A stretch of 64,000 bases of DNA from Candidatus Micrarchaeota archaeon (GTDB lineage Archaea > Micrarchaeota > Micrarchaeia > Micrarchaeales > CABMGC01), in contig JAJZKQ010000001.1 of NCBI GenBank assembly GCA_021804095.1, forward strand, positions 17,993 to 81,992. Reading direction: 5' to 3'. A program made the translations under genes and the position numbers. Below, one piece after another: positions 2,885 to 15,452 of this stretch (position 1 is the first letter of the stretch; each line of letters begins with the position of its first letter). A model generated the notes under the pieces. It saw only the letters and a program-made list of their open reading frames with translations, did no database searches and was not told the DNA's origin.

Positions 2885-3829
2885 TTATTTTTTAGTATAG
2901 CCTAACTTTATTGCTTTCTTTATTGAATGCTTATAAGAGACTATCCCTATTATTATAACAGCGAATATTACAAGAAAGAAGCCTATGCCCAGATTATCGA
3001 GATTGTGTATTTTTATTCCTGTGTTTATGCCGATGTTGATGAGGTTTGGATAGAGAAGAATGGCTATTCCGCCTATTACGAATGCCAGACCCCCGTATTC
3101 AAGAACATCGCTGCTTATTGTTCTTGAAACAAAACTTATTCCTTTCTTTGTTAATTTCTTTACGCTTGTAAGCCATTTGCCGAATGCTGCTCCGAAGGCT
3201 ACCTGCATAGTCATGGTTCCGAGTCCGAAAAGCAATCCTGGAAGAAAACCCAGATATGGACTTGGCATTGCAGGTGCCAATACAGTATAGATTATCAGTG
3301 CGAATGCGCCAAATCCGAAGCCGGCTATGAGCCCGTGAAGGAAAGCCGCTTTGGGGGGAACTGGACGCAGTTCTTCATCTATATCTTCGGAAGGGTTTCT
3401 CTTGTGCTCGAGCTCTTCGTGCATTTCCTTTTTCGAGTGCTTATGTATGAAGTAGGATCCGAGCTTTTCTTCGATAAAATGCCAGTGGGGATATATGCTC
3501 TTTCTTTTGATATACAATCCTGCAATAAACATGGCAAGCCCTACCAAGAGATAGGTTATTCCGAATACAGTCGCTGTCATGAAGATTCCTGCAAGGGCAA
3601 AATATGCTATCTCTGAGAGTATTGCTCTTTGGATTGTGAATCCGCTTGAGAATATGAGGCCTGATTTCATTCCGCCTTTTGTCGTTCCGCTGCCTACAGC
3701 ATATGAAAAAGTTATGGGCCATGTATGCTCGTCTGGAGTAGCCCCGTGAACAATTCCTAGAAGGTATGAAAGAATAAGCGCAGTGAAAACACTGACATTT
3801 TCAGGATTCCATAGATTTATTCCGGACAT
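2885..3829 (-). CDS. Polytopic membrane protein, probable divalent-metal transporter (NicO/RcnA-like assignment tentative)
   Basis: 314 aa with multiple hydrophobic segments and an N-terminal HGATPDEH motif. A central His/Glu-rich loop reads HKHSKKEMHEELEHKRNPSEDIDEE. It starts 4 nt downstream of a DtxR-type regulator on the same strand. Confidence 0.5.
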   Translation of the reverse strand: MSGINLWNPENVSVFTALILSYLLGIVHGATPDEHTWPITFSYAVGSGTTKGGMKSGLIFSSGFTIQRAILSEIAYFALAGIFMTATVFGITYLLVGLAMFIAGLYIKRKSIYPHWHFIEEKLGSYFIHKHSKKEMHEELEHKRNPSEDIDEELRPVPPKAAFLHGLIAGFGFGAFALIIYTVLAPAMPSPYLGFLPGLLFGLGTMTMQVAFGAAFGKWLTSVKKLTKKGISFVSRTISSDVLEYGGLAFVIGGIAILLYPNLINIGINTGIKIHNLDNLGIGFFLVIFAVIIIGIVSYKHSIKKAIKLGYTKK

Positions 3830-3833
3830 ACGC

Positions 3834-4226
3834 TCACCTTATCGGTTTTCCGTGTGGGCAGTTAGTTGATCTTATTGTATTGATAAGCATCCTGCCTGTG
3901 CTGCCATCTATCTTGTAATCGAATCTTTTTATTTCCTCGCAGGCCTTATCTGGATCTATTCCTGCATTGCTGAATATTGATTCAAGACTCCTGTGGGTTG
4001 ATAGGATAAAATGATAACTTCGCATGCCTTTTTTTGTGATAGATATGGAACCATGTTTATTTTTTATAAGGCCTTTTGTCTCAAGTCTCCTGATTATTTC
4101 GTGTGTTGTCGGACTGGAAACCTCTATCTTCTTTGAAATTTCGTATAGTCTTGCTACTACTTCGTCTTTAGTTATTTCAGCTACACTGAAAAGGCAGTCC
4201 CGTTCTCTTTTTGTAAGCCGGTTCAT
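3834..4226 (-). CDS. DtxR/MntR-family metal-dependent transcriptional repressor
   Basis: 130 aa. N-terminal wHTH (LYEISKKIEVSSPTTHEIIRRLETKGLI), then a dimerisation/metal-site segment (STHRSLESIF...NCPHGKPI). Confidence 0.8.
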   Translation of the reverse strand: MNRLTKRERDCLFSVAEITKDEVVARLYEISKKIEVSSPTTHEIIRRLETKGLIKNKHGSISITKKGMRSYHFILSTHRSLESIFSNAGIDPDKACEEIKRFDYKIDGSTGRMLINTIRSTNCPHGKPIR

Positions 4227-4316: not shown

Positions 4317-4889
4317 ATGGAGGATTTAATTTTGGAATATTCGGAAAGCATTATAAATATGATTGTCCATTCATATACTATGCGAAAAGAAAATCAGGCA
4401 ATAAATGCAATTCGTTTGGTGTTAGGTTCTAAAAAGTATTTTATTGCGTTTTTTGCTATAGCTGCATTTGCATTTCTTGCTTATTCTTATCTGCTTTTTG
4501 GCTCTACGCTGAATTTAGCTCTGCCCAAGGTTTTTGGATTTAGCATTTATCTGATATTTGTTTCAATGATGATAGGCGTTTTGCTCTCATTGACAATAGT
4601 AATGAATGTGTTTGCCTTTGCAAATGGGGCTGTGAAGGGTGGAAAGACAGGTTTGGGAGCTGCATTAATTGCGTTGGTTCCGGGAAGCCTATGCTGCACA
4701 TCTGTAATACCCGCATTGTTGGCCGCTTTTGGTGCTTCTACAGCTACAATAATAAGGATAACTGGAACAATTCAAGGACCTTTTGCAGCTTATGAAACAG
4801 GATTTATTGCTTTATCAATAGGGCTTCTTTTTTTGAGCGTTTATCTTGCTTCTAAGAGTATTCTCAGATGTAATGGGAGGAGGAAATGA
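4317..4889 (+). CDS. Membrane protein with TM-embedded vicinal cysteines (candidate thiophilic-metal transporter)
   Basis: 190 aa with about 4-5 hydrophobic helices. The motif ALVPGSLCCTSVIPALLAAFG lies in a helix. Its stop overlaps the start of the next gene (ATGA at 4886-4889). It is the first gene of the ArsR-MerA cluster. Confidence 0.6.
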   Translation: MEDLILEYSESIINMIVHSYTMRKENQAINAIRLVLGSKKYFIAFFAIAAFAFLAYSYLLFGSTLNLALPKVFGFSIYLIFVSMMIGVLLSLTIVMNVFAFANGAVKGGKTGLGAALIALVPGSLCCTSVIPALLAAFGASTATIIRITGTIQGPFAAYETGFIALSIGLLFLSVYLASKSILRCNGRRK

Positions 4890-5443
4890 AAAAAAATATA
4901 AAAATAATTGGAATTGTCGTTGCGTTAGTGATAGTAGCATCAGTATATTTCCTGTGGCCTAGATCGACAGGCGAAAGTTCAGCAATTCAAAATATTACTA
5001 TAGGTTCGAAAGCTCCAGAAAATAACTTTCTTTTAGATAACGGCACGTATGTAAATATTTCCAAGTATAGAGGGCACCCCGTCGTACTCTGGTTTGTTGC
5101 TACTTGGTGTTCCACCTGCGCGCAGGGAAATCAGGTTTTGAATGGAAATTACCAATTTTTTAAGAAGCATGGTATAGATATCGTAGAATTAGAACTTTAT
5201 AAGGATCTTGGGTACCAAGGACCTACCATAACGAATTTCATTAGTTCGTATGCTCCTGAAGCCTATGCTAATGGTACAATAATACCCGCACTTTCAGGAA
5301 ATAATATGACATTGAAGTATGACCCGAAAGGTTATCTCGATATTTATTACCTTGTTTCAGGAAATGGTACAGTGGAGTATATAAGTGGGGAGCCTGCTTT
5401 GACTTTAGGTCAATTGAAAAATGCAATAAACAATTCATTATAG
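4886..5443 (+). CDS. N-terminally anchored thioredoxin-fold protein (TlpA/ResA-like redoxin, CxxC)
   Basis: 185 aa. Signal anchor MKKNIKIIGIVVALVIVASVYFLW, followed by the redoxin pattern GSKAPENNFLLDNGTYVNISKYRGHPVVLWFVATWCSTCAQ. Confidence 0.8.
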   Translation: MKKNIKIIGIVVALVIVASVYFLWPRSTGESSAIQNITIGSKAPENNFLLDNGTYVNISKYRGHPVVLWFVATWCSTCAQGNQVLNGNYQFFKKHGIDIVELELYKDLGYQGPTITNFISSYAPEAYANGTIIPALSGNNMTLKYDPKGYLDIYYLVSGNGTVEYISGEPALTLGQLKNAINNSL

Positions 5444-5447
5444 GGAT

Positions 5448-5780
5448 ATGATGGAAAAACTTGAATTCAAAGCTTTTTTTCATGCACTAGGAGATTACAG
5501 CCGGTTTGTTATATTGCATTCGCTTGCCAAACAAGATATGAGCGTGGGGGAGATAGTATCTGCAACAGGCATTGAACAGAGTAATGTTTCACATCATATG
5601 TATTGCTTGTTGAATTGTGGATTTGTAAATGTAAGGAAGGATGGGAATAAGCGCATTTATAGAATTAATGAGGAAGTGAAAGAAACAGTAGAAAAGATAA
5701 CCGAACACATAGATACCTATAAGAAAGAGATAATATCTTGTGGCATAGCAAACGGTGAATATATCTCTGGGGTAATTTAA
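5448..5780 (+). CDS. ArsR/SmtB-family metalloregulator
   Basis: 110 aa. Reads ALGDYSRFVILHSLAKQDMSVGEIVSATGIEQSNVSHHMYCLLNCGFVNVRKDGNKRIYRIN. Its stop overlaps the merA start (TAATG). Confidence 0.85.
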   Translation: MMEKLEFKAFFHALGDYSRFVILHSLAKQDMSVGEIVSATGIEQSNVSHHMYCLLNCGFVNVRKDGNKRIYRINEEVKETVEKITEHIDTYKKEIISCGIANGEYISGVI

Positions 5781-7195
5781 TGGAAAAGTTCGATTATGCA
5801 ATATTGGGCCAAGGATCTGCTGCGTTTGCCGCAGCAATAAAAGCAAATGAGATCGGAATAAAGACAGTTATGATAGGAGGAAATGCTACAGAAGGCACGA
5901 TACTCGGAGGCACATGTATAAATGTAGGATGTGTCCCTAGCAAAAGGCTCATAACTGTAGGTACTTTTGCCGAAGAGCTTAGGAAGAGGAGGTATGCTGG
6001 ATTTGATTATAATGTTGGAAAGTTGGATTATGCGGAAATAGTAAACGAAAAGAACAAAATTGTAGAAGAACTTAGAAGTGAAAAGTATGACAGGGTTTTG
6101 GAAAGCTTGGAAAATGTCAGTTTCATAAATGGAATAGGAAGATTCATAGGTAAGGATATAATCAGAGCAGGTAAAAAGGAGATAAAGGCAGGAAATATAC
6201 TAATAGCTACAGGGGCAAGGGCCTCTGTGCCGAGGATGAAGGGAATAGAGAAGGTGAAATATTTGACAAATGAGGAAGCATTGTCAGCGAAGAAGCTTCC
6301 CGATTCAATTATTGTTGTTGGAGGCAGGGTTCTTGGTCTTGAGTTCGCGCAGATGTTCTCCAGATTTGGAGTTAAAGTCACTCTGTTACAGAGAAGTGAG
6401 AGGATAATACCCAATTGGGAGCCTGAAATAAGCAATTATCTTACAGAATATATGAGAGAAAACGGAATAAGGATAGTTACAGGAGTAAAGTTATCTGAGA
6501 TACATTCTCGAAAAGGGTTGAAGGAGATAATTGGAGAAGTTAATGGGAAGGAGGTTAGCTTTGAGGCTGAGGAAATTCTTTTTGCTACAGGCAGAAGAGC
6601 TAATATAGAGAGACTTGGTCTTGACAAGGCAGAAGTACAATTAAATGAAAGGAATTTCATAAAGATTGATAGAAGGTTAAAGACAACTGCAGATAACATA
6701 TATGCAGCAGGAGATGTTACAGGAGAGCCTATGCTTGAAACCCTGGCTGCTAAAGAAGGCAATGTGGCAACTTCGAATATCTTCCAGAACTCCAAGAAGG
6801 AGATAAATTTGAATGAAGTGCCTAGTGCTATATTTACTTATCCTGAAGCTGCGATGGTAGGCATGACGGAAGCGCAGATAATAAATAATGGGATAAAATG
6901 CAGCTGCAGCCCTTTAGAGTTTAAGTTTGTTGCCAAGTCCAGAATAATTGGGGATACGAGAGGGATTATTAAGATAGTGATAGACAGGAACACGAGGAAG
7001 ATGCTTGGAGTACATATCCTAGCTCCGCATGCGGCTGAACTTATACATGAAGGGGTACTCGCAGTGAAGTTAGGATTGACTATAGATGACATAATTGATA
7101 CGGTGCACGTCTTTCCTACGCTCAGTGAGGGCTTAAAACTGGCAGCCATGGCTTTTTATCAAGATATCTCTAAAATTAGTTGCTGCAGCGTATGA
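5780..7195 (+). CDS. merA: Mercuric reductase core (no N-terminal HMA domain)
   Basis: 471 aa. FAD motif ILGQGSAAFAAAIKA and redox-active GGTCINVGCVPSK. The C-terminal LKLAAMAFYQDISKISCCSV carries the MerA-diagnostic terminal Cys pair. Confidence 0.85.
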   Translation: MEKFDYAILGQGSAAFAAAIKANEIGIKTVMIGGNATEGTILGGTCINVGCVPSKRLITVGTFAEELRKRRYAGFDYNVGKLDYAEIVNEKNKIVEELRSEKYDRVLESLENVSFINGIGRFIGKDIIRAGKKEIKAGNILIATGARASVPRMKGIEKVKYLTNEEALSAKKLPDSIIVVGGRVLGLEFAQMFSRFGVKVTLLQRSERIIPNWEPEISNYLTEYMRENGIRIVTGVKLSEIHSRKGLKEIIGEVNGKEVSFEAEEILFATGRRANIERLGLDKAEVQLNERNFIKIDRRLKTTADNIYAAGDVTGEPMLETLAAKEGNVATSNIFQNSKKEINLNEVPSAIFTYPEAAMVGMTEAQIINNGIKCSCSPLEFKFVAKSRIIGDTRGIIKIVIDRNTRKMLGVHILAPHAAELIHEGVLAVKLGLTIDDIIDTVHVFPTLSEGLKLAAMAFYQDISKISCCSV

Positions 7196-7483: not shown

Positions 7484-7756
7484 TCAACAAACCTTTTTAT
7501 CAGAATCTTGAGTTACTGATTGTTCACTGGCTTTGCTTGATAGTTCCAAGTCGTGTACAGTGGGGAGCCTGCCAGTTGCCTTTTTTGAATATATGGTTAT
7601 GCCGTCTTTCATCACTTCGAATGATCCCGATTGGCCCGGAATAAGCTTTAAAGAAAATTCTTCATTGTGTGCATTGCTTTCCAAAACCTTTTGGGCCAGT
7701 TCTATAGCAACTGGTAGGTAGCAGCCAACACAGAATCGCATTTCGTATTTCATCAA
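7484..7756 (-). CDS. Rdx-family (SelW/SelT-like) thioredoxin-fold CxxC protein
   Basis: 90 aa. Contains MRFCVGCYLP...LIPGQSGSFEVMKDGITIYSKKATGRLPTVHDL, the classic Rdx pattern (CxxC, PG--G-FEV, SK---GRFP). Confidence 0.7.
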   Translation of the reverse strand: MMKYEMRFCVGCYLPVAIELAQKVLESNAHNEEFSLKLIPGQSGSFEVMKDGITIYSKKATGRLPTVHDLELSSKASEQSVTQDSDKKVC

Positions 7757-7825
7757 TTCACCTTTATATAAATACTACAAAAGATAAAGTATTTATACTA
7801 CAATGTTCAAACTATTGTAGATGCT

Positions 7826-8215
7826 ATGAAGAATCAAAGTAGTGAATCTAAAACTTATTGTTTTTGTGCTCTCGATGGTACCATGAATCTTTTAGGAAAG
7901 AAGTGGGTCCTTTTCACGATAAATGTGATTGGAAATCATGGAACTGTTAGATTTACTGATCTTTCTAGAGAATTGCAAGGCATTTCGCAGTCAACGCTCG
8001 CTTGGATACTTAAAAACCTAGAGCATACAGACATTATTGAGAGGAAATCGTTTGCAGAGATACCTCCGAGAGTCGAGTATTCGCTAACAAGGAAGGGCAG
8101 CGAGCTAAGAAAAGCGTTAGTACCCCTGCTTTTCTGGGCTGCAAAGCAAGATGATTACTCAAAGAAGGTTGAGAAGTGTGATCAAAACCAGTACGTCAGA
8201 GTCAATATAATTTAA
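7826..8215 (+). CDS. HxlR-family transcriptional regulator
   Basis: 129 aa. Reads CALDGTMNLLGKKWVLFTINVIGNHGTVRFTDLSRELQGISQSTLAWILKNLEHTDIIERKSFAEIPPRVEYSLTRKG. It is divergent from the Rdx gene. Confidence 0.85.
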   Translation: MKNQSSESKTYCFCALDGTMNLLGKKWVLFTINVIGNHGTVRFTDLSRELQGISQSTLAWILKNLEHTDIIERKSFAEIPPRVEYSLTRKGSELRKALVPLLFWAAKQDDYSKKVEKCDQNQYVRVNII

Positions 8216-8273
8216 GATTAGCTACTACTTTAGAGTAGATAGATTTATATATTATATATGTATATATAATACC

Positions 8274-8537
8274 ATGCAGAAACAACGGATGATGCACTAC
8301 CCGAGACTTGATACTGTGCTTATGGTAGAAGATGCAATTAGAGATGCAAAGGAATATCCATCAAAGAGGCAGCTTTGGCTATCTTTGAAGAGAAAGGTGA
8401 TGTACCAAACCTTCAATGTAATAATATCGTATCTTGAAGATTCAGGCAAGATTTTGCAGAAGAACGGTAAGATAATCTGGATATGGAACCCCGAACTGGT
8501 TAAGAAGTACGGCAATAGCAACTTGGTGTTGAAATAA
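8274..8537 (+). CDS. Small wHTH-like protein, possible antitoxin partner of the downstream RelE-like gene
   Basis: 87 aa, ending 41 nt upstream of the RelE/ParE-like ORF on the same strand. I recognise no family; the role is inferred from position only. Confidence 0.4.
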   Translation: MQKQRMMHYPRLDTVLMVEDAIRDAKEYPSKRQLWLSLKRKVMYQTFNVIISYLEDSGKILQKNGKIIWIWNPELVKKYGNSNLVLK

Positions 8538-8578
8538 ACGGCAACAGGAAGATTAGCGTAGTCTTTGCAGATGAAAAA

Positions 8579-8866
8579 TTGCAAAAGGCGTACTTTAAGG
8601 TAAAGGTAGAAAATCCAATTCTTTACAAGTTCCTTGACAGGGCAACAGATGATTTGAAGGCCGACCCAAAATGCGGCATAGAGATACCTAAACGTTTGAT
8701 TCCAAAAGAGTATAAGCAAAAATACGGAATAAACAACTTATGGAAGTACAACCTTCCTAATGCTTGGAGGCTTGTTTATTCTATAACTGGCAATGAAGTC
8801 GAGATAATTGCCATATTGCTTGAGTGGTTTGACCATAAAGACTATGAACGACGCTTTAAGTACTGA
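8579..8866 (+). CDS. RelE/ParE-superfamily toxin
   Basis: 95 aa with a TTG start, the only canonical start after the in-frame stop at 8516. The pattern ...LKADPKCGIEIPKRLIP...NLWKYNLPNAWRLVYSITGNEVEIIAILLEWFDHKDYERRF fits the RelE/YoeB fold. Confidence 0.6.
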   Translation: MQKAYFKVKVENPILYKFLDRATDDLKADPKCGIEIPKRLIPKEYKQKYGINNLWKYNLPNAWRLVYSITGNEVEIIAILLEWFDHKDYERRFKY

Positions 8867-8875
8867 TTTTTCTCT

Positions 8876-9631
8876 TCAGAAGTTCTGTTGTCGTAATGAA
8901 AACGATTTGTCTATCTCATTGTATAACTCTTGCTTGGTAGTGCTTATGTAGGTCAGCGTTACAGCTGTTGCTCTATGGCGAGCAAACTTGGCTGTAAGAA
9001 TGATATTGCCGTTTGTCTGCTTAGAAAAGCTAGTTATTGCATAATGTCTGAGGCTATGAGTAGTAAGCCTGTGTAGGCTTCTAGGAACATTATCATAATT
9101 GGTTTCATCGCTGCTATCATATATTCTGTCTAGCCCTGCTTTCTGAACGTAATGCCTGAACCTGTTTCTAAGATAGTCCTTGCTTAGATACTGCTCATTT
9201 CTTTCGCTGTAATAGCCATCTTCTTTGAAGAACAGATAGCCCATAGATGTTTCTCTCCGCTTCTTGTTTTGCTTTAGGAATTCAAGCGTCAGCCTGAAGA
9301 GAGGTATTGGTAGGATTAAAGTGTCCAATGTGTTTGACTTTTCACTTTTTATAGTAAGTTCTCTTGTTTGGAAGTCAATATTCTTGATATTGAGTCTTAC
9401 TGCTTCTCCTACTCTTATGCCAAGCTGCGCTTGATAGGAAAAGAGCAGTTGAAGTTTCGGGTTGTCTATAATCCTGAAGAACAGCTGCACCTCCTGTTCG
9501 GTAAAACCTTTGTTGAGGCTTCCGTATTTAGGAGGTTGATTCTTTGCAAACTTCTTTAGAAATTGTTTGTGTACAATTTTCTTTATGAACTTCATCTGAT
9601 GATAGGTAAGCTTTGGAAGCACTGAATACAA
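8876..9631 (-). CDS. Tyrosine recombinase / phage-type integrase (XerC/D-like)
   Basis: 251 aa. Catalytic-region motifs LGIRVGEAVRL (Arg), HSLRHYAITS (H-x-x-R), and ARHRATAVTLTYI (His...Tyr). Confidence 0.85.
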   Translation of the reverse strand: MYSVLPKLTYHQMKFIKKIVHKQFLKKFAKNQPPKYGSLNKGFTEQEVQLFFRIIDNPKLQLLFSYQAQLGIRVGEAVRLNIKNIDFQTRELTIKSEKSNTLDTLILPIPLFRLTLEFLKQNKKRRETSMGYLFFKEDGYYSERNEQYLSKDYLRNRFRHYVQKAGLDRIYDSSDETNYDNVPRSLHRLTTHSLRHYAITSFSKQTNGNIILTAKFARHRATAVTLTYISTTKQELYNEIDKSFSLRQQNF

Positions 9632-9669: not shown

Positions 9670-9726
9670 GGATTTGAACACGCCTTTTCTTTCTGATTTT
9701 GCTTGATTATCTAGGATTTGAACCCG
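9670..9726. repeat. Two degenerate copies of the tRNA T-arm core (GGATTTGAAC)
   Basis: GGATTTGAACACG lies at 9670-9682 and GGATTTGAACCCG at 9714-9726. The genuine tRNA-Glu T-arm GGATTTGAACCCG is at 9761-9773. Spacing is 44 and 47 nt. The copy at 9714 also shares an ATTTTG flank with the tRNA 3' flank. Confidence 0.5.
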
Positions 9727-9749
9727 CGACTTACGTCGTGAATTTTGAG

Positions 9750-9824
9750 TGCTCCCGCCGGGATTTGAACCCGGGTTGCGGGGTTGAAAGCCCCACGTCC
9801 TTGGCCGAGCTAGACGACAGGAGC
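9750..9824 (-). tRNA. tRNA-Glu (anticodon UUC)
   Basis: Hand-folded cloverleaf. Acceptor GCUCCUG/CGGGAGC, D stem GUCU/GGAC, anticodon arm UGGGG-CUUUCAA-CCCCG, T arm CCGGG-UUCAAAU-CCCGG. No encoded CCA and no intron. Confidence 0.9.
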
Positions 9825-14953: not shown

Positions 14954-15452
14954 GTATATGGTAAGAGGTTTTGATATTGTAGATATGGATTCTGTCAACA
15001 TTAGGCTTGCTGAGGTTATAGGTTACAAGAAGGTATATGCTAGAAATGAGATAATAGTTACTGAAGATCAGGCATATGAGGGAAAGTGCATATTTTTGGG
15101 AAGGGAGCATGGAGCATTGGGAAAGGCTCTCAGGAGGAACAATGTGGAAGGCATAATGATCTTTGACAATGAACTTATAAGACAGACGTTAGAAGAGTGC
15201 CGTGATAACGAGAAAATTCTTTTCGTAGATATTTCAAACCTAACAGTACAGGAGCAGAGGCTGAGGCTTAGGAATATACATAGGGCAAGATTCCTGATAA
15301 GATCCGCCTTGAGGAGCAGGACTAAGATAGCGTTGGTCTCGCTTGCGAAGGATGAGGCAGGGATGCTTTCAGCTATGCAGATGCTTGCATTTGCCAAGTT
15401 TCTTGGTATAAATGAGAAAGATGCTGACAGTATATTCTACAACAAAGGATGA
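14934..15452 (+). CDS. rnp3: RNase P protein component 3 (Rpp30-like), tentative
   Basis: 172 aa. The C-terminal KIALVSLAKDEAGMLSAMQMLAFAKFLGINEKDA resembles the Rpp30 TIM-barrel end. It sits directly upstream of a clear Pop5 homolog, as in other archaea. Confidence 0.55.
   Translation: MFMKRYEYMVRGFDIVDMDSVNIRLAEVIGYKKVYARNEIIVTEDQAYEGKCIFLGREHGALGKALRRNNVEGIMIFDNELIRQTLEECRDNEKILFVDISNLTVQEQRLRLRNIHRARFLIRSALRSRTKIALVSLAKDEAGMLSAMQMLAFAKFLGINEKDADSIFYNKG

Follow-up and report, generated by a model that had tools for sequence, protein, structure and literature searches.

The stretch of DNA analysed here (the window, 64 kb long) contains, between positions 4380 and 7195 of its forward strand, four co-directional and tightly packed genes that encode a membrane protein, an anchored thioredoxin-fold protein, a repressor of the ArsR/SmtB family, and MerA. 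The pair formed by the first two genes is the subject of this report, in which it is considered as a possible Hg(II) uptake module; related genome and metagenome loci with which the operon was compared are designated by numbers preceded by L. The four genes are:

4380..4889, + strand: four-helix membrane protein, 169 aa, with a vicinal Cys pair (C105 and C106) in predicted transmembrane helix 3 (TM3; codons 4692-4697)
4886..5443, + strand: thioredoxin-fold protein (TlpA/ResA-like), 185 aa, with an N-terminal anchor and the motif W-C75-S-T-C78
5448..5780, + strand: ArsR/SmtB-family repressor, 110 aa, with three invariant Cys (C53, C57, C98)
5780..7195, + strand: MerA core enzyme, 471 aa, lacking an N-terminal HMA (NmerA) domain

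A preliminary description of this DNA had presented the genes as translationally coupled, and the junctions it gave agree with the sequence: the first two genes share an ATGA overlap at 4886-4889 (stop codon TGA of the membrane protein at 4887-4889, start codon ATG of its partner at 4886-4888), a 4-nt gap separates the end of the thioredoxin-fold gene at 5443 from the repressor ATG at 5448 (homologs suggest that the second Met, at 5451, is the start), and the repressor and MerA genes share a TAATG overlap at 5778-5782 (TAA at 5778-5780, ATG at 5780-5782). The listed motifs are likewise present, namely LCCTSVIP in the membrane protein (TGC TGC at 4692-4697), WCSTC in its partner (Cys codons at 5108-5110 and 5117-5119), HHMYCLLNCG in the repressor, and GGTCINVGCVPSK together with the C-terminal SCCSV in MerA. 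Correction is needed for the membrane-protein reading frame, given as 190 aa from position 4317, which was over-extended by 21 codons. Homologs begin at the residue equivalent to Met22 of the longer frame, and the upstream DNA of 12 aligned loci is unalignable except for one nearly invariant block, TTATAAATATGAtTGnnCAtTCATATAtTATG, that ends in the start ATG. Because homologs start at Met22 and the upstream "codons" are a conserved DNA block, the gene is assigned to 4380-4889.

The 471-aa protein exceeds the cut-off of the NCBIfam equivalog TIGR02053 (549.9 versus 454.45 bits) and matches Pfam Pyr_redox_2 and Pyr_redox_dim without an HMA domain, in keeping with its earlier description as a MerA core. 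Published criteria for MerA are a CxxxxC motif, a C-terminal Cys pair, and a Phe (archaeal) versus Tyr distinction (PMC3466566); the protein carries the redox-active C-INVG-C (within GGTCINVGCVPSK), the C-terminal vicinal pair in ...KISCCSV, and the archaeal-type Phe in ...HVFPTLSEG.... By these sequence features it is a genuine MerA. The absence of recognizable MerT, MerP, MerC or MerF, also noted earlier, was upheld by Pfam and NCBIfam scans of the operon, and tblastn found no match to MerT, MerP, MerC, MerF, MerH, MerB or MerR anywhere in the window.

Conservation of the four-gene arrangement is far beyond chance. Across 14 Micrarchaeota-type genome loci, the order membrane protein, thioredoxin-fold protein, ArsR, MerA is kept wherever the contig permits except in L006, i.e., in 11 of the 12 loci with enough sequence (48-85% identity). 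More distant members of the membrane-protein family (22-38% identity) have merA immediately upstream in 8 of 8 independent contexts (in three of these only the C-terminus of MerA is on the contig), and the neighbours include MerT, MerP, MerC, MerR, and MerB. These contigs are attributed to Bacteria because they carry an extracytoplasmic function (ECF) sigma factor (L015) or RND/OEP efflux genes (L021). The order in bacterial mer operons is merA, thioredoxin-fold gene, membrane gene, with the thioredoxin-fold gene directly before the membrane gene and usually overlapping it by 4 nt. A metagenome scan with the bacterial-branch alignment returned 80 further loci, 46 of which contain merA; counting as merA-less only loci with at least 3 kb of upstream and 2 kb of downstream sequence, merA lies within 4 kb in approximately 85% of evaluable cases (46/54). 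The redoxin partner adjoins the membrane gene in 62 of 72 evaluable metagenome loci, and in L028, L074, and L100 the membrane gene directly follows merA without a redoxin, an arrangement that a core transporter role of the membrane protein would predict.

The association also occurs on plasmids of three cultured groups (haloarchaea, Acidithiobacillus, and Acidiphilium). Both the MOBQ plasmid of Acidithiobacillus ferrooxidans YQ-N3 and plasmid pACMV1 of Acidiphilium multivorum AIU301 carry a MerR-type helix-turn-helix regulator, merA, a 'redoxin family protein', and a 'hypothetical protein' of 173 aa that matches the profile hidden Markov model (HMM) of the family at E ~1e-55; no MerT, MerP, MerC or MerF is present in these two mer operons. 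Halorussus and Halobacterium plasmids encode merA, ArsR, a fusion of the same type of redoxin domain with DUF3105, and then the membrane protein. In some operons, including that of the window, the pair is the only candidate transporter, whereas many bacterial operons with the pair also contain MerT, MerP and/or MerC (e.g., L017, L032, L034, and L046), so the pair supplements these proteins as often as it replaces them. The preliminary description had named a wide distribution without merA as evidence that would count against a role in mercury resistance; the 8/8 distant contexts and 46/54 metagenome loci favor that role. The pair is a conserved two-gene, mer-specific module rather than a generic disulfide relay, and it is not specific to Archaea but spans both Bacteria and Archaea; the gene content and the cross-domain synteny with merA are direct observations.

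The membrane-protein family is rare and unnamed. The window protein matches no Pfam or NCBIfam family, and scans of 24 and of 89 homologs gave only scattered sub-threshold matches. A word-indexed search found 31 clusters, nearly all from metagenome-assembled genomes (MAGs) of Micrarchaeota or 'Marsarchaeota' and all unnamed, while a full profile search recovered 153 representatives at E <1e-3 among 1.84 billion sequences; copies in public sources are all annotated as hypothetical. Conservation of the Cys pair, on which the earlier proposal had been made to depend, is directly observed: in an alignment of 89 diverse sequences (mean column identity 20%), the vicinal CC is the sole invariant feature, with a nearly invariant Pro five residues further on, and CC is present in approximately 140 of the best 150 representatives. 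A Cys also occurs within the last 25 residues of 172 of 190 members, as a single residue (113), as CC (50), or as CxxC (9). The AlphaFold2 model built from the 89-sequence alignment (predicted local distance difference test, pLDDT, 82.9; predicted template modeling score, pTM, 0.74) has four long helices, the CC-bearing one being interrupted immediately after the Cys pair; it was used in place of an earlier model from a shallow alignment, which was poor (pLDDT 60.7). By the positive-inside rule, both termini of this four-helix protein are predicted to be cytoplasmic (N-in/C-in), with the CC at the helix break in TM3; loops 1 and 3 would face outward, and loop 2, which is rich in Lys, would face inward together with the Arg/Lys-rich C-terminus that bears the Cys. 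The earlier picture of a relay, with the thioredoxin domain outside the cell and the CC within a helix, agrees with this prediction.

Profile comparisons show a remote and suggestive similarity to the mercury transporters MerT and MerF. Two family members touch the MerT profile PF02411 at E 1e-3 to 1e-2, with the region from the CC helix to the C-terminus aligning to MerT positions 6-76, and the family HMM scores Tn501 MerT at 16.1 bits. Comparison of the family with single MerF and MerT sequences by hhalign (these two sequences having been verified on annotated plasmids) gave probabilities of 49% and 40%, respectively, with the CC motifs in register. When the 190-sequence family alignment was compared with small MerT, MerF, and MerC alignments from fetched loci, the match to MerT reached 86.3% probability (E 5.4e-7, score 37.3; reversed control 8.7, 0.4%) and that to MerF 61% (score 30.2; reversed control 5.0, 0.1%). 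The elements aligned in register with the MerT/MerF core are the helix with the CC, the helix after it, and the cytoplasmic Cys, which make up the C-terminal half of the protein. This C-terminal hairpin is therefore probably, but not with certainty, homologous to the MerT/MerF core, while the protein as a whole belongs to none of the named families. Two other identities were considered and rejected. MerC gave only 4% by hhalign and has its metal-binding Cys in helix 1; MerH, which is of equal size and position, scored -7.4 bits with the family HMM (pMM23 MerH) and has its CC at residues 38-39, in TM1.

The soluble partner exceeds the Pfam cut-offs for AhpC-TSA (PF00578; 35.4 versus 26 bits) and Redoxin (PF08534; 34.6 versus 26.6 bits). 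The profile searches proposed in the preliminary description thus yielded no family for the membrane protein and only these two for its partner, which falls below the NCBIfam cut-offs for ResA, DsbE, and TlpA (49.4, 28.9, and 23.0 bits versus 170, 359, and 230). It matches redoxin families and not HMA (PF00403, GMTCxxC), and its resemblance to MerP would be functional only. The motif WCxxC is present in 78 of 79 partners, and the bacterial ones (176-195 aa) share LW(L/F)V(S/A)TWCxxC and YNPRxYxD(I/L)Y(F/Y)LI with the partner in the window. Export signals differ among lineages: the partner has an N-terminal anchor in the window, a signal peptide of the Sec type in bacteria, and the Tat-like motif RRKLL in haloarchaea; by these signals the partner is extracytoplasmic in all three. 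At the cis-Pro position, as set by alignment to 2YP6, the window protein and all 15 of its Micrarchaeota-type orthologs have Leu. Use of this position to discriminate between metal binding and reductase activity was rejected: loss of the cis-Pro is lineage-specific and therefore not decisive between the two.

The haloarchaeal partners have an unusual domain structure. On the Halorussus vallis plasmid NZ_CP100003 (L027, 2410-3861), the partner is a 483-aa fusion consisting, in order, of N-terminal C2H2-type zinc fingers, the Tat-like RRKLL, a redoxin domain with FATWCPSC, and a C-terminal DUF3105 domain; the redoxin-DUF3105 fusion also occurs on Halobacterium zhouii and Halorussus aquaticus plasmids. 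The fusion ties the uncharacterised DUF3105 to a mer context.

The third gene encodes a regulator that passes the cut-offs of NF033788 (75.5 versus 55 bits) and HTH_5 (PF01022; 49.3 versus 22 bits), and its C53, C57, and C98 are invariant in 15 orthologs. Residues 11-73 align without gaps to residues 15-77 of the Cd/Pb sensor CmtR (2JSC), placing C53 and C57 on CmtR positions 57 and 61; in CmtR, Cys57, Cys61, and a C-terminal Cys are the ligands of the alpha4C thiolate site. The regulator thus has the alpha4C-type arrangement, with Cys at both CmtR positions and the invariant C98, at a score below the CmtR equivalog cut-off (34.1 versus 150 bits). The ArsR-type regulator encoded in the mer operon of Mycobacterium marinum pMM23 shares the CxxxCG motif. 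Because ArsR-type mer regulators are already known from Sulfolobus, Streptomyces, and Bacteroidetes (PMC3466566), the regulator is an ordinary part of the operon, and it is proposed here as the Hg(II)-responsive operon repressor. Two putative control elements lie ahead of the first gene:

4350..4359, + strand: archaeal TATA box ATTATAAATA, within a block nearly invariant in 12 loci; putative promoter
4357..4376, no strand assigned: 9-2-9 imperfect palindrome ATATGATTG-TC-CATTCATAT, conserved in 12/12 loci and overlapping the TATA box; candidate operator

Since the TATA box lies approximately 25 nt ahead of the ATG at 4380, a leaderless mRNA is implied, and the operon transcript is probably of this kind. 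The palindrome stands between the TATA box and the start codon, which would be exactly where an archaeal repressor could block initiation. Its core, ATATGA-N8-TCATAT, occurs exactly once in the window; the only other site found there has one mismatch (at 15074) and is at chance level. The palindrome is a candidate operator of the operon's own ArsR-type repressor, and ATATGATTGTCCATTCATAT is the candidate operator DNA for that protein.

With moderate confidence, we interpret the locus as a compact, self-regulated mer operon of a Micrarchaeota-type (DPANN) archaeon, in which the pair is a dedicated Hg(II) uptake module that feeds MerA. Hg binding, the direction of transport, the order of hand-off, and the function of repressor and operator are what we infer for this model, which would run as follows. 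Transcription would be leaderless, from the TATA box at 4350-4359, and would be kept off by the ArsR/SmtB repressor on the palindrome at 4357-4376 until Hg(II) bound to the three conserved Cys freed the DNA. The outward-facing, anchored thioredoxin-fold protein would use its WCxxC dithiol to take up Hg(II), as MerP uses its CxxC, and would hand it on, through exchange of thiol ligands, to the two adjacent Cys in helix 3 of the membrane protein. From there the ion would move to the cytoplasmic C-terminal Cys of the same protein and next reach the Cys pair at the C-terminus of MerA, where it would be reduced to volatile Hg(0), a hand-off that would parallel MerP to MerT to MerA. The membrane protein itself is most likely an unnamed and very distant four-helix member of the MerT/MerF superfamily, acting as an Hg(II) importer. 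We give about even chances to the wider proposal that the pair represents a distinct class of mercury uptake beside MerT/P, MerC, MerF, MerE, and MerH, in which thioredoxin-fold capture feeds a four-helix MerT-like channel and which has spread horizontally across Bacteria and Archaea. The preliminary description had called the pair an undescribed archaeal analog of MerT/MerP; the linkage to merA, the conservation of the CC, and the predicted topology bear out part of this wording, whereas the restriction to Archaea fails, since the pair is common in bacteria, and the hhalign results (86% and 61%) make the membrane protein probably a very distant homolog of the MerT/MerF core and not a mere analog.

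Several observations weigh against the uptake model. Neither the window protein nor its family reaches the curated thresholds for MerT, MerF, MerC, or DsbD; PF02411 does not match the window protein and scores 19.2 bits at best within the family (cut-off 32.9), and the NCBIfam model for MerF (NF033565) matches neither the window protein nor its bacterial homologs. A search of PDB sequences with the family profile returned nothing relevant and did not reach the MerF chains, and Foldseek found no match in the PDB. For hydrophobic helices, a probability of 86% in hhalign suggests homology and does not prove it. The window membrane protein ends with a single C-terminal Cys, whereas many homologs have CC. 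The nearest relatives of the partner are the reductases ResA, TlpA, and DsbE, and the cis-Pro typical of thiol-disulfide oxidoreductases is kept in at least 42 of 63 bacterial-branch partners. Where MerT, MerP, or MerC coexist with the pair, it is not needed as the sole importer and might have another role. Lastly, merA is absent from eight evaluable metagenome loci (~15%), two of which have a MerR-family regulator ahead of the pair, one a heavy-metal P-type ATPase, and two transposases as neighbours. It is also missing from L006 (a Micrarchaeaceae MAG, 1387-2815), where the membrane, thioredoxin-fold, and ArsR genes are followed instead by a gene on the opposite strand and by genes for superoxide dismutase and cytochrome bd; either merA was lost or it lies elsewhere in the genome.

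The same data were considered in light of other explanations. The main alternative is that the pair serves mercury defence as a reductive thiol-disulfide relay, in which the membrane protein would send reducing equivalents outward, in the manner of CcdA or DsbD, to a partner that keeps extracytoplasmic Hg-binding thiols (MerP, the Cys of MerT/MerC, surface proteins) reduced or that repairs oxidised or mercurated proteins, with no carriage of Hg(II). The kinship of the partner with ResA, DsbE, and TlpA, the cis-Pro retained in most bacterial partners, the frequent coexistence with MerT/MerP/MerC, and the translational coupling of the two genes in either order are all in line with such a function. 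The membrane protein, however, has no detectable relation to DsbD or CcdA (DsbD_2 at E 0.045 in 1 of 89 members), its similarity being to MerT/MerF, and a vicinal Cys-Cys is a classic Hg(II) ligand yet forms a strained and unusual redox disulfide. Furthermore, the membrane gene can follow merA without a redoxin (L028, L074, and L100), neither the window nor the Acidithiobacillus and Acidiphilium plasmids offer a MerP, MerT, or MerC to be kept reduced, and Leu replaces the cis-Pro in all 15 Micrarchaeota-type partners. On balance, a reductive relay seems unlikely.

Sequestration or exclusion at the cell surface, with the pair binding Hg(II) outside and in the membrane so as to bar its entry or buffer it and delivering nothing to MerA, is less probable still. 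The outward-facing or intramembrane location of the cysteines would suit it, as would the loci in which the pair accompanies a MerR-type regulator without merA (L054 and L082) and the merA-less L006; set against these are the tight and wide linkage to merA, usually in one operon with overlapping genes, the conserved cytoplasmic C-terminal Cys (172/190), which fits an inward hand-off better than exclusion, and the expectation that a stoichiometric binder would soon saturate. Finally, the matches of the partner to Pfam Redoxin and AhpC-TSA, together with the purely housekeeping neighbours in L052, could be taken to mean that the pair is a generic disulfide relay of the CcdA/ResA type (e.g., for cytochrome maturation) whose proximity to merA is incidental. 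This explanation is very hard to credit and is contradicted by the census: the family is rare (153 representatives among 1.84 billion), it adjoins merA in Micrarchaeota, haloarchaea, Acidithiobacillia, Alphaproteobacteria, and many uncultured bacteria, and the linkage persists despite differing gene order.

Few resistance systems have been studied as thoroughly as mer operons. Surveys of mer genes list merT/P/C/F/E/G/H and TRASH proteins, and archaeal mer operons have been reported without transporters, save for a Ferroplasma merP (PMC3466566); MerA has been recorded in 22 Micrarchaeota genomes with no discussion of transport (PMC8261052). The pair was not described in the full-text literature searched, whose coverage leaves out most subscription journals, so that a prior mention is possible. 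Such surveys would miss the pair because no curated model matches it and its members are annotated as 'hypothetical' and 'redoxin'. What appears to be new is a putative, distant MerT/MerF-type importer of new architecture together with a partner of new fold. If the membrane protein is an importer, it would explain how Hg(II) is delivered to MerA in the transporter-less operons of Micrarchaeota and of haloarchaeal, Acidithiobacillus, and Acidiphilium plasmids, and archaeal mer operons would for the first time have a dedicated Hg(II) importer assigned to them, closing a recognised gap. The partner would then extend the range of extracytoplasmic metal hand-off proteins by a new fold, and the pair would provide a new marker for metagenomic studies of Hg cycling as well as an uptake part for bioremediation and biosensors. 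As the pair is carried on plasmids of culturable acidophiles, the hypothesis is directly testable.

The surroundings of the operon contain signs of mobility. A tyrosine recombinase (window 8876-9631, - strand; Phage_integrase, E 7.5e-13) adjoins a tRNA-Glu(TTC) gene (9749-9824, - strand), the interval holds two incomplete copies of the tRNA T-arm (9670-9683 and 9714-9727), and the guanine-plus-cytosine content falls to 0.35-0.39 over about 3.5-10 kb compared with 0.40-0.46 in the flanks. The same tRNA-Glu lies directly upstream of the mer operon in L013 (5910-5984) and L014 (5834-5908), and a tRNA-Leu does so in L011 (5889-5975). These findings suggest that the operon travels on tRNA-targeting integrative elements; a distal att repeat bounding an island around the operon was not found, the partial T-arm copies being local. 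Downstream of merA (7484-7756, - strand; 7826-8215, + strand; 8274-8866, + strand) are genes for a small Rdx/SelW-like protein with a CxxC (CVGC) and for an HxlR-family regulator, along with what may be a toxin-antitoxin pair (weak ParE match, E 0.004), and the genes from 7484 to 8866 are possibly further cargo of the same island. Divergent genes upstream (2885-3829 and 3834-4226, both - strand) encode a DtxR/MntR-like regulator and a 314-aa polytopic membrane protein with a weak DsbD_2 match (E 0.002); they are placed outside the module because they are conserved only in L001, the closest relative. This locus (JAKBPE010000010.1) shares 81-95% protein identity with the window over six genes. 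Every other relative carries the label Micrarchaeota or Marsarchaeota, whereas L001 was deposited as 'MAG: bacterium' and is probably a mislabelled archaeal bin.

Bacterial mer operons with the pair include further unnamed or unusual genes. Those recurring beside it (L015 3968-4417 and 5666-6208; L019 3980-4432; L021 5683-6225; L108 6012-6605; L109 2651-3163) include a membrane protein of 149-150 aa with FFVSACCLG (weak MerC-like match) and a 180-aa putative lipoprotein; the A. ferrooxidans plasmid has a Met-rich 197-aa protein, and pACMV1 has a 170-aa Cys-rich membrane protein ahead of merA. Four loci (L017 5595-6305, L019 5592-6317, L025 1573-2277, and L046 4565-5257) encode a MerC-like transporter that continues at its C-terminus into a BufA2 bufferin-type metallophore domain (NF050166, 73 bits); downstream lie modification genes (MbnB_TglH_ChrH and HvfC_N) and the gene of a second pyridine-nucleotide disulfide oxidoreductase. 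Mer operons thus seem to contain a fusion of MerC with a bufferin.

Among known systems, the MerR of Sulfolobus and Streptomyces, the pMM23 regulator, and CmtR resemble the regulator in the window in having an ArsR/SmtB winged helix with a CxxxC in alpha4 and a C-terminal Cys. ArsR-type mercury repressors are, as here, encoded inside the mer operon, while CmtR is set apart by its equivalog cut-off, which the window regulator does not reach (34 versus 150 bits). CcdA/DsbD with ResA/TlpA/DsbE resemble the pair in that a thioredoxin-fold CxxC protein, either anchored or periplasmic, is encoded beside a membrane protein whose Cys are essential. The Scs copper-tolerance system is a precedent for thioredoxin-fold proteins in metal tolerance. 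CcdA and DsbD, however, have two separated Cys in a pseudo-symmetric six-helix core rather than one vicinal pair, their families (PF13386, PF02683) do not match the window protein, and the genomic association of the pair is with merA and not with cytochrome-maturation genes. MerC and MerH (PF03203; pMM23 MerH) share with the new protein a length of ~140-170 aa, four predicted helices, and a position directly after merA, but their CC or CxxC is in the first helix whereas that of the new protein is in helix 3. The two-helix MerF (NF033565) has the same succession of a CC helix, a second helix, and a C-terminal cytoplasmic Cys or CC; it differs in lacking both a dedicated thioredoxin-fold partner and the two extra N-terminal helices, with their own conserved motifs, of the new protein.

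A close parallel in organization is MerT/MerP (Tn501/Tn21; PF02411, PF00403), in which an extracytoplasmic CxxC protein likewise operates beside a membrane protein whose vicinal Cys pair lies within the membrane and precedes a Pro. In MerT, as in the new protein, the CC is followed by a second helix and then a cytoplasmic Cys, the gene is located in the mer operon near merA, and the segment TM1-TM2-Cys76 aligns by hhalign (86%) with the C-terminal half of the new protein. MerT has three helices, with CC in helix 1 and a Cys pair in the cytoplasmic loop between TM2 and TM3, whereas the new protein has four, carries its CC in helix 3, and, in place of the loop pair, has one or two C-terminal Cys. 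The spacing also differs, being CC-x4-P in the new protein (CC-S/T-P-x2-P in bacterial members) versus CC-x2-P in MerT. MerP has a ferredoxin-like HMA fold where the soluble partner of the new pair has a thioredoxin fold (TlpA/ResA-like), and the new pair frequently occurs in addition to MerT/MerP.

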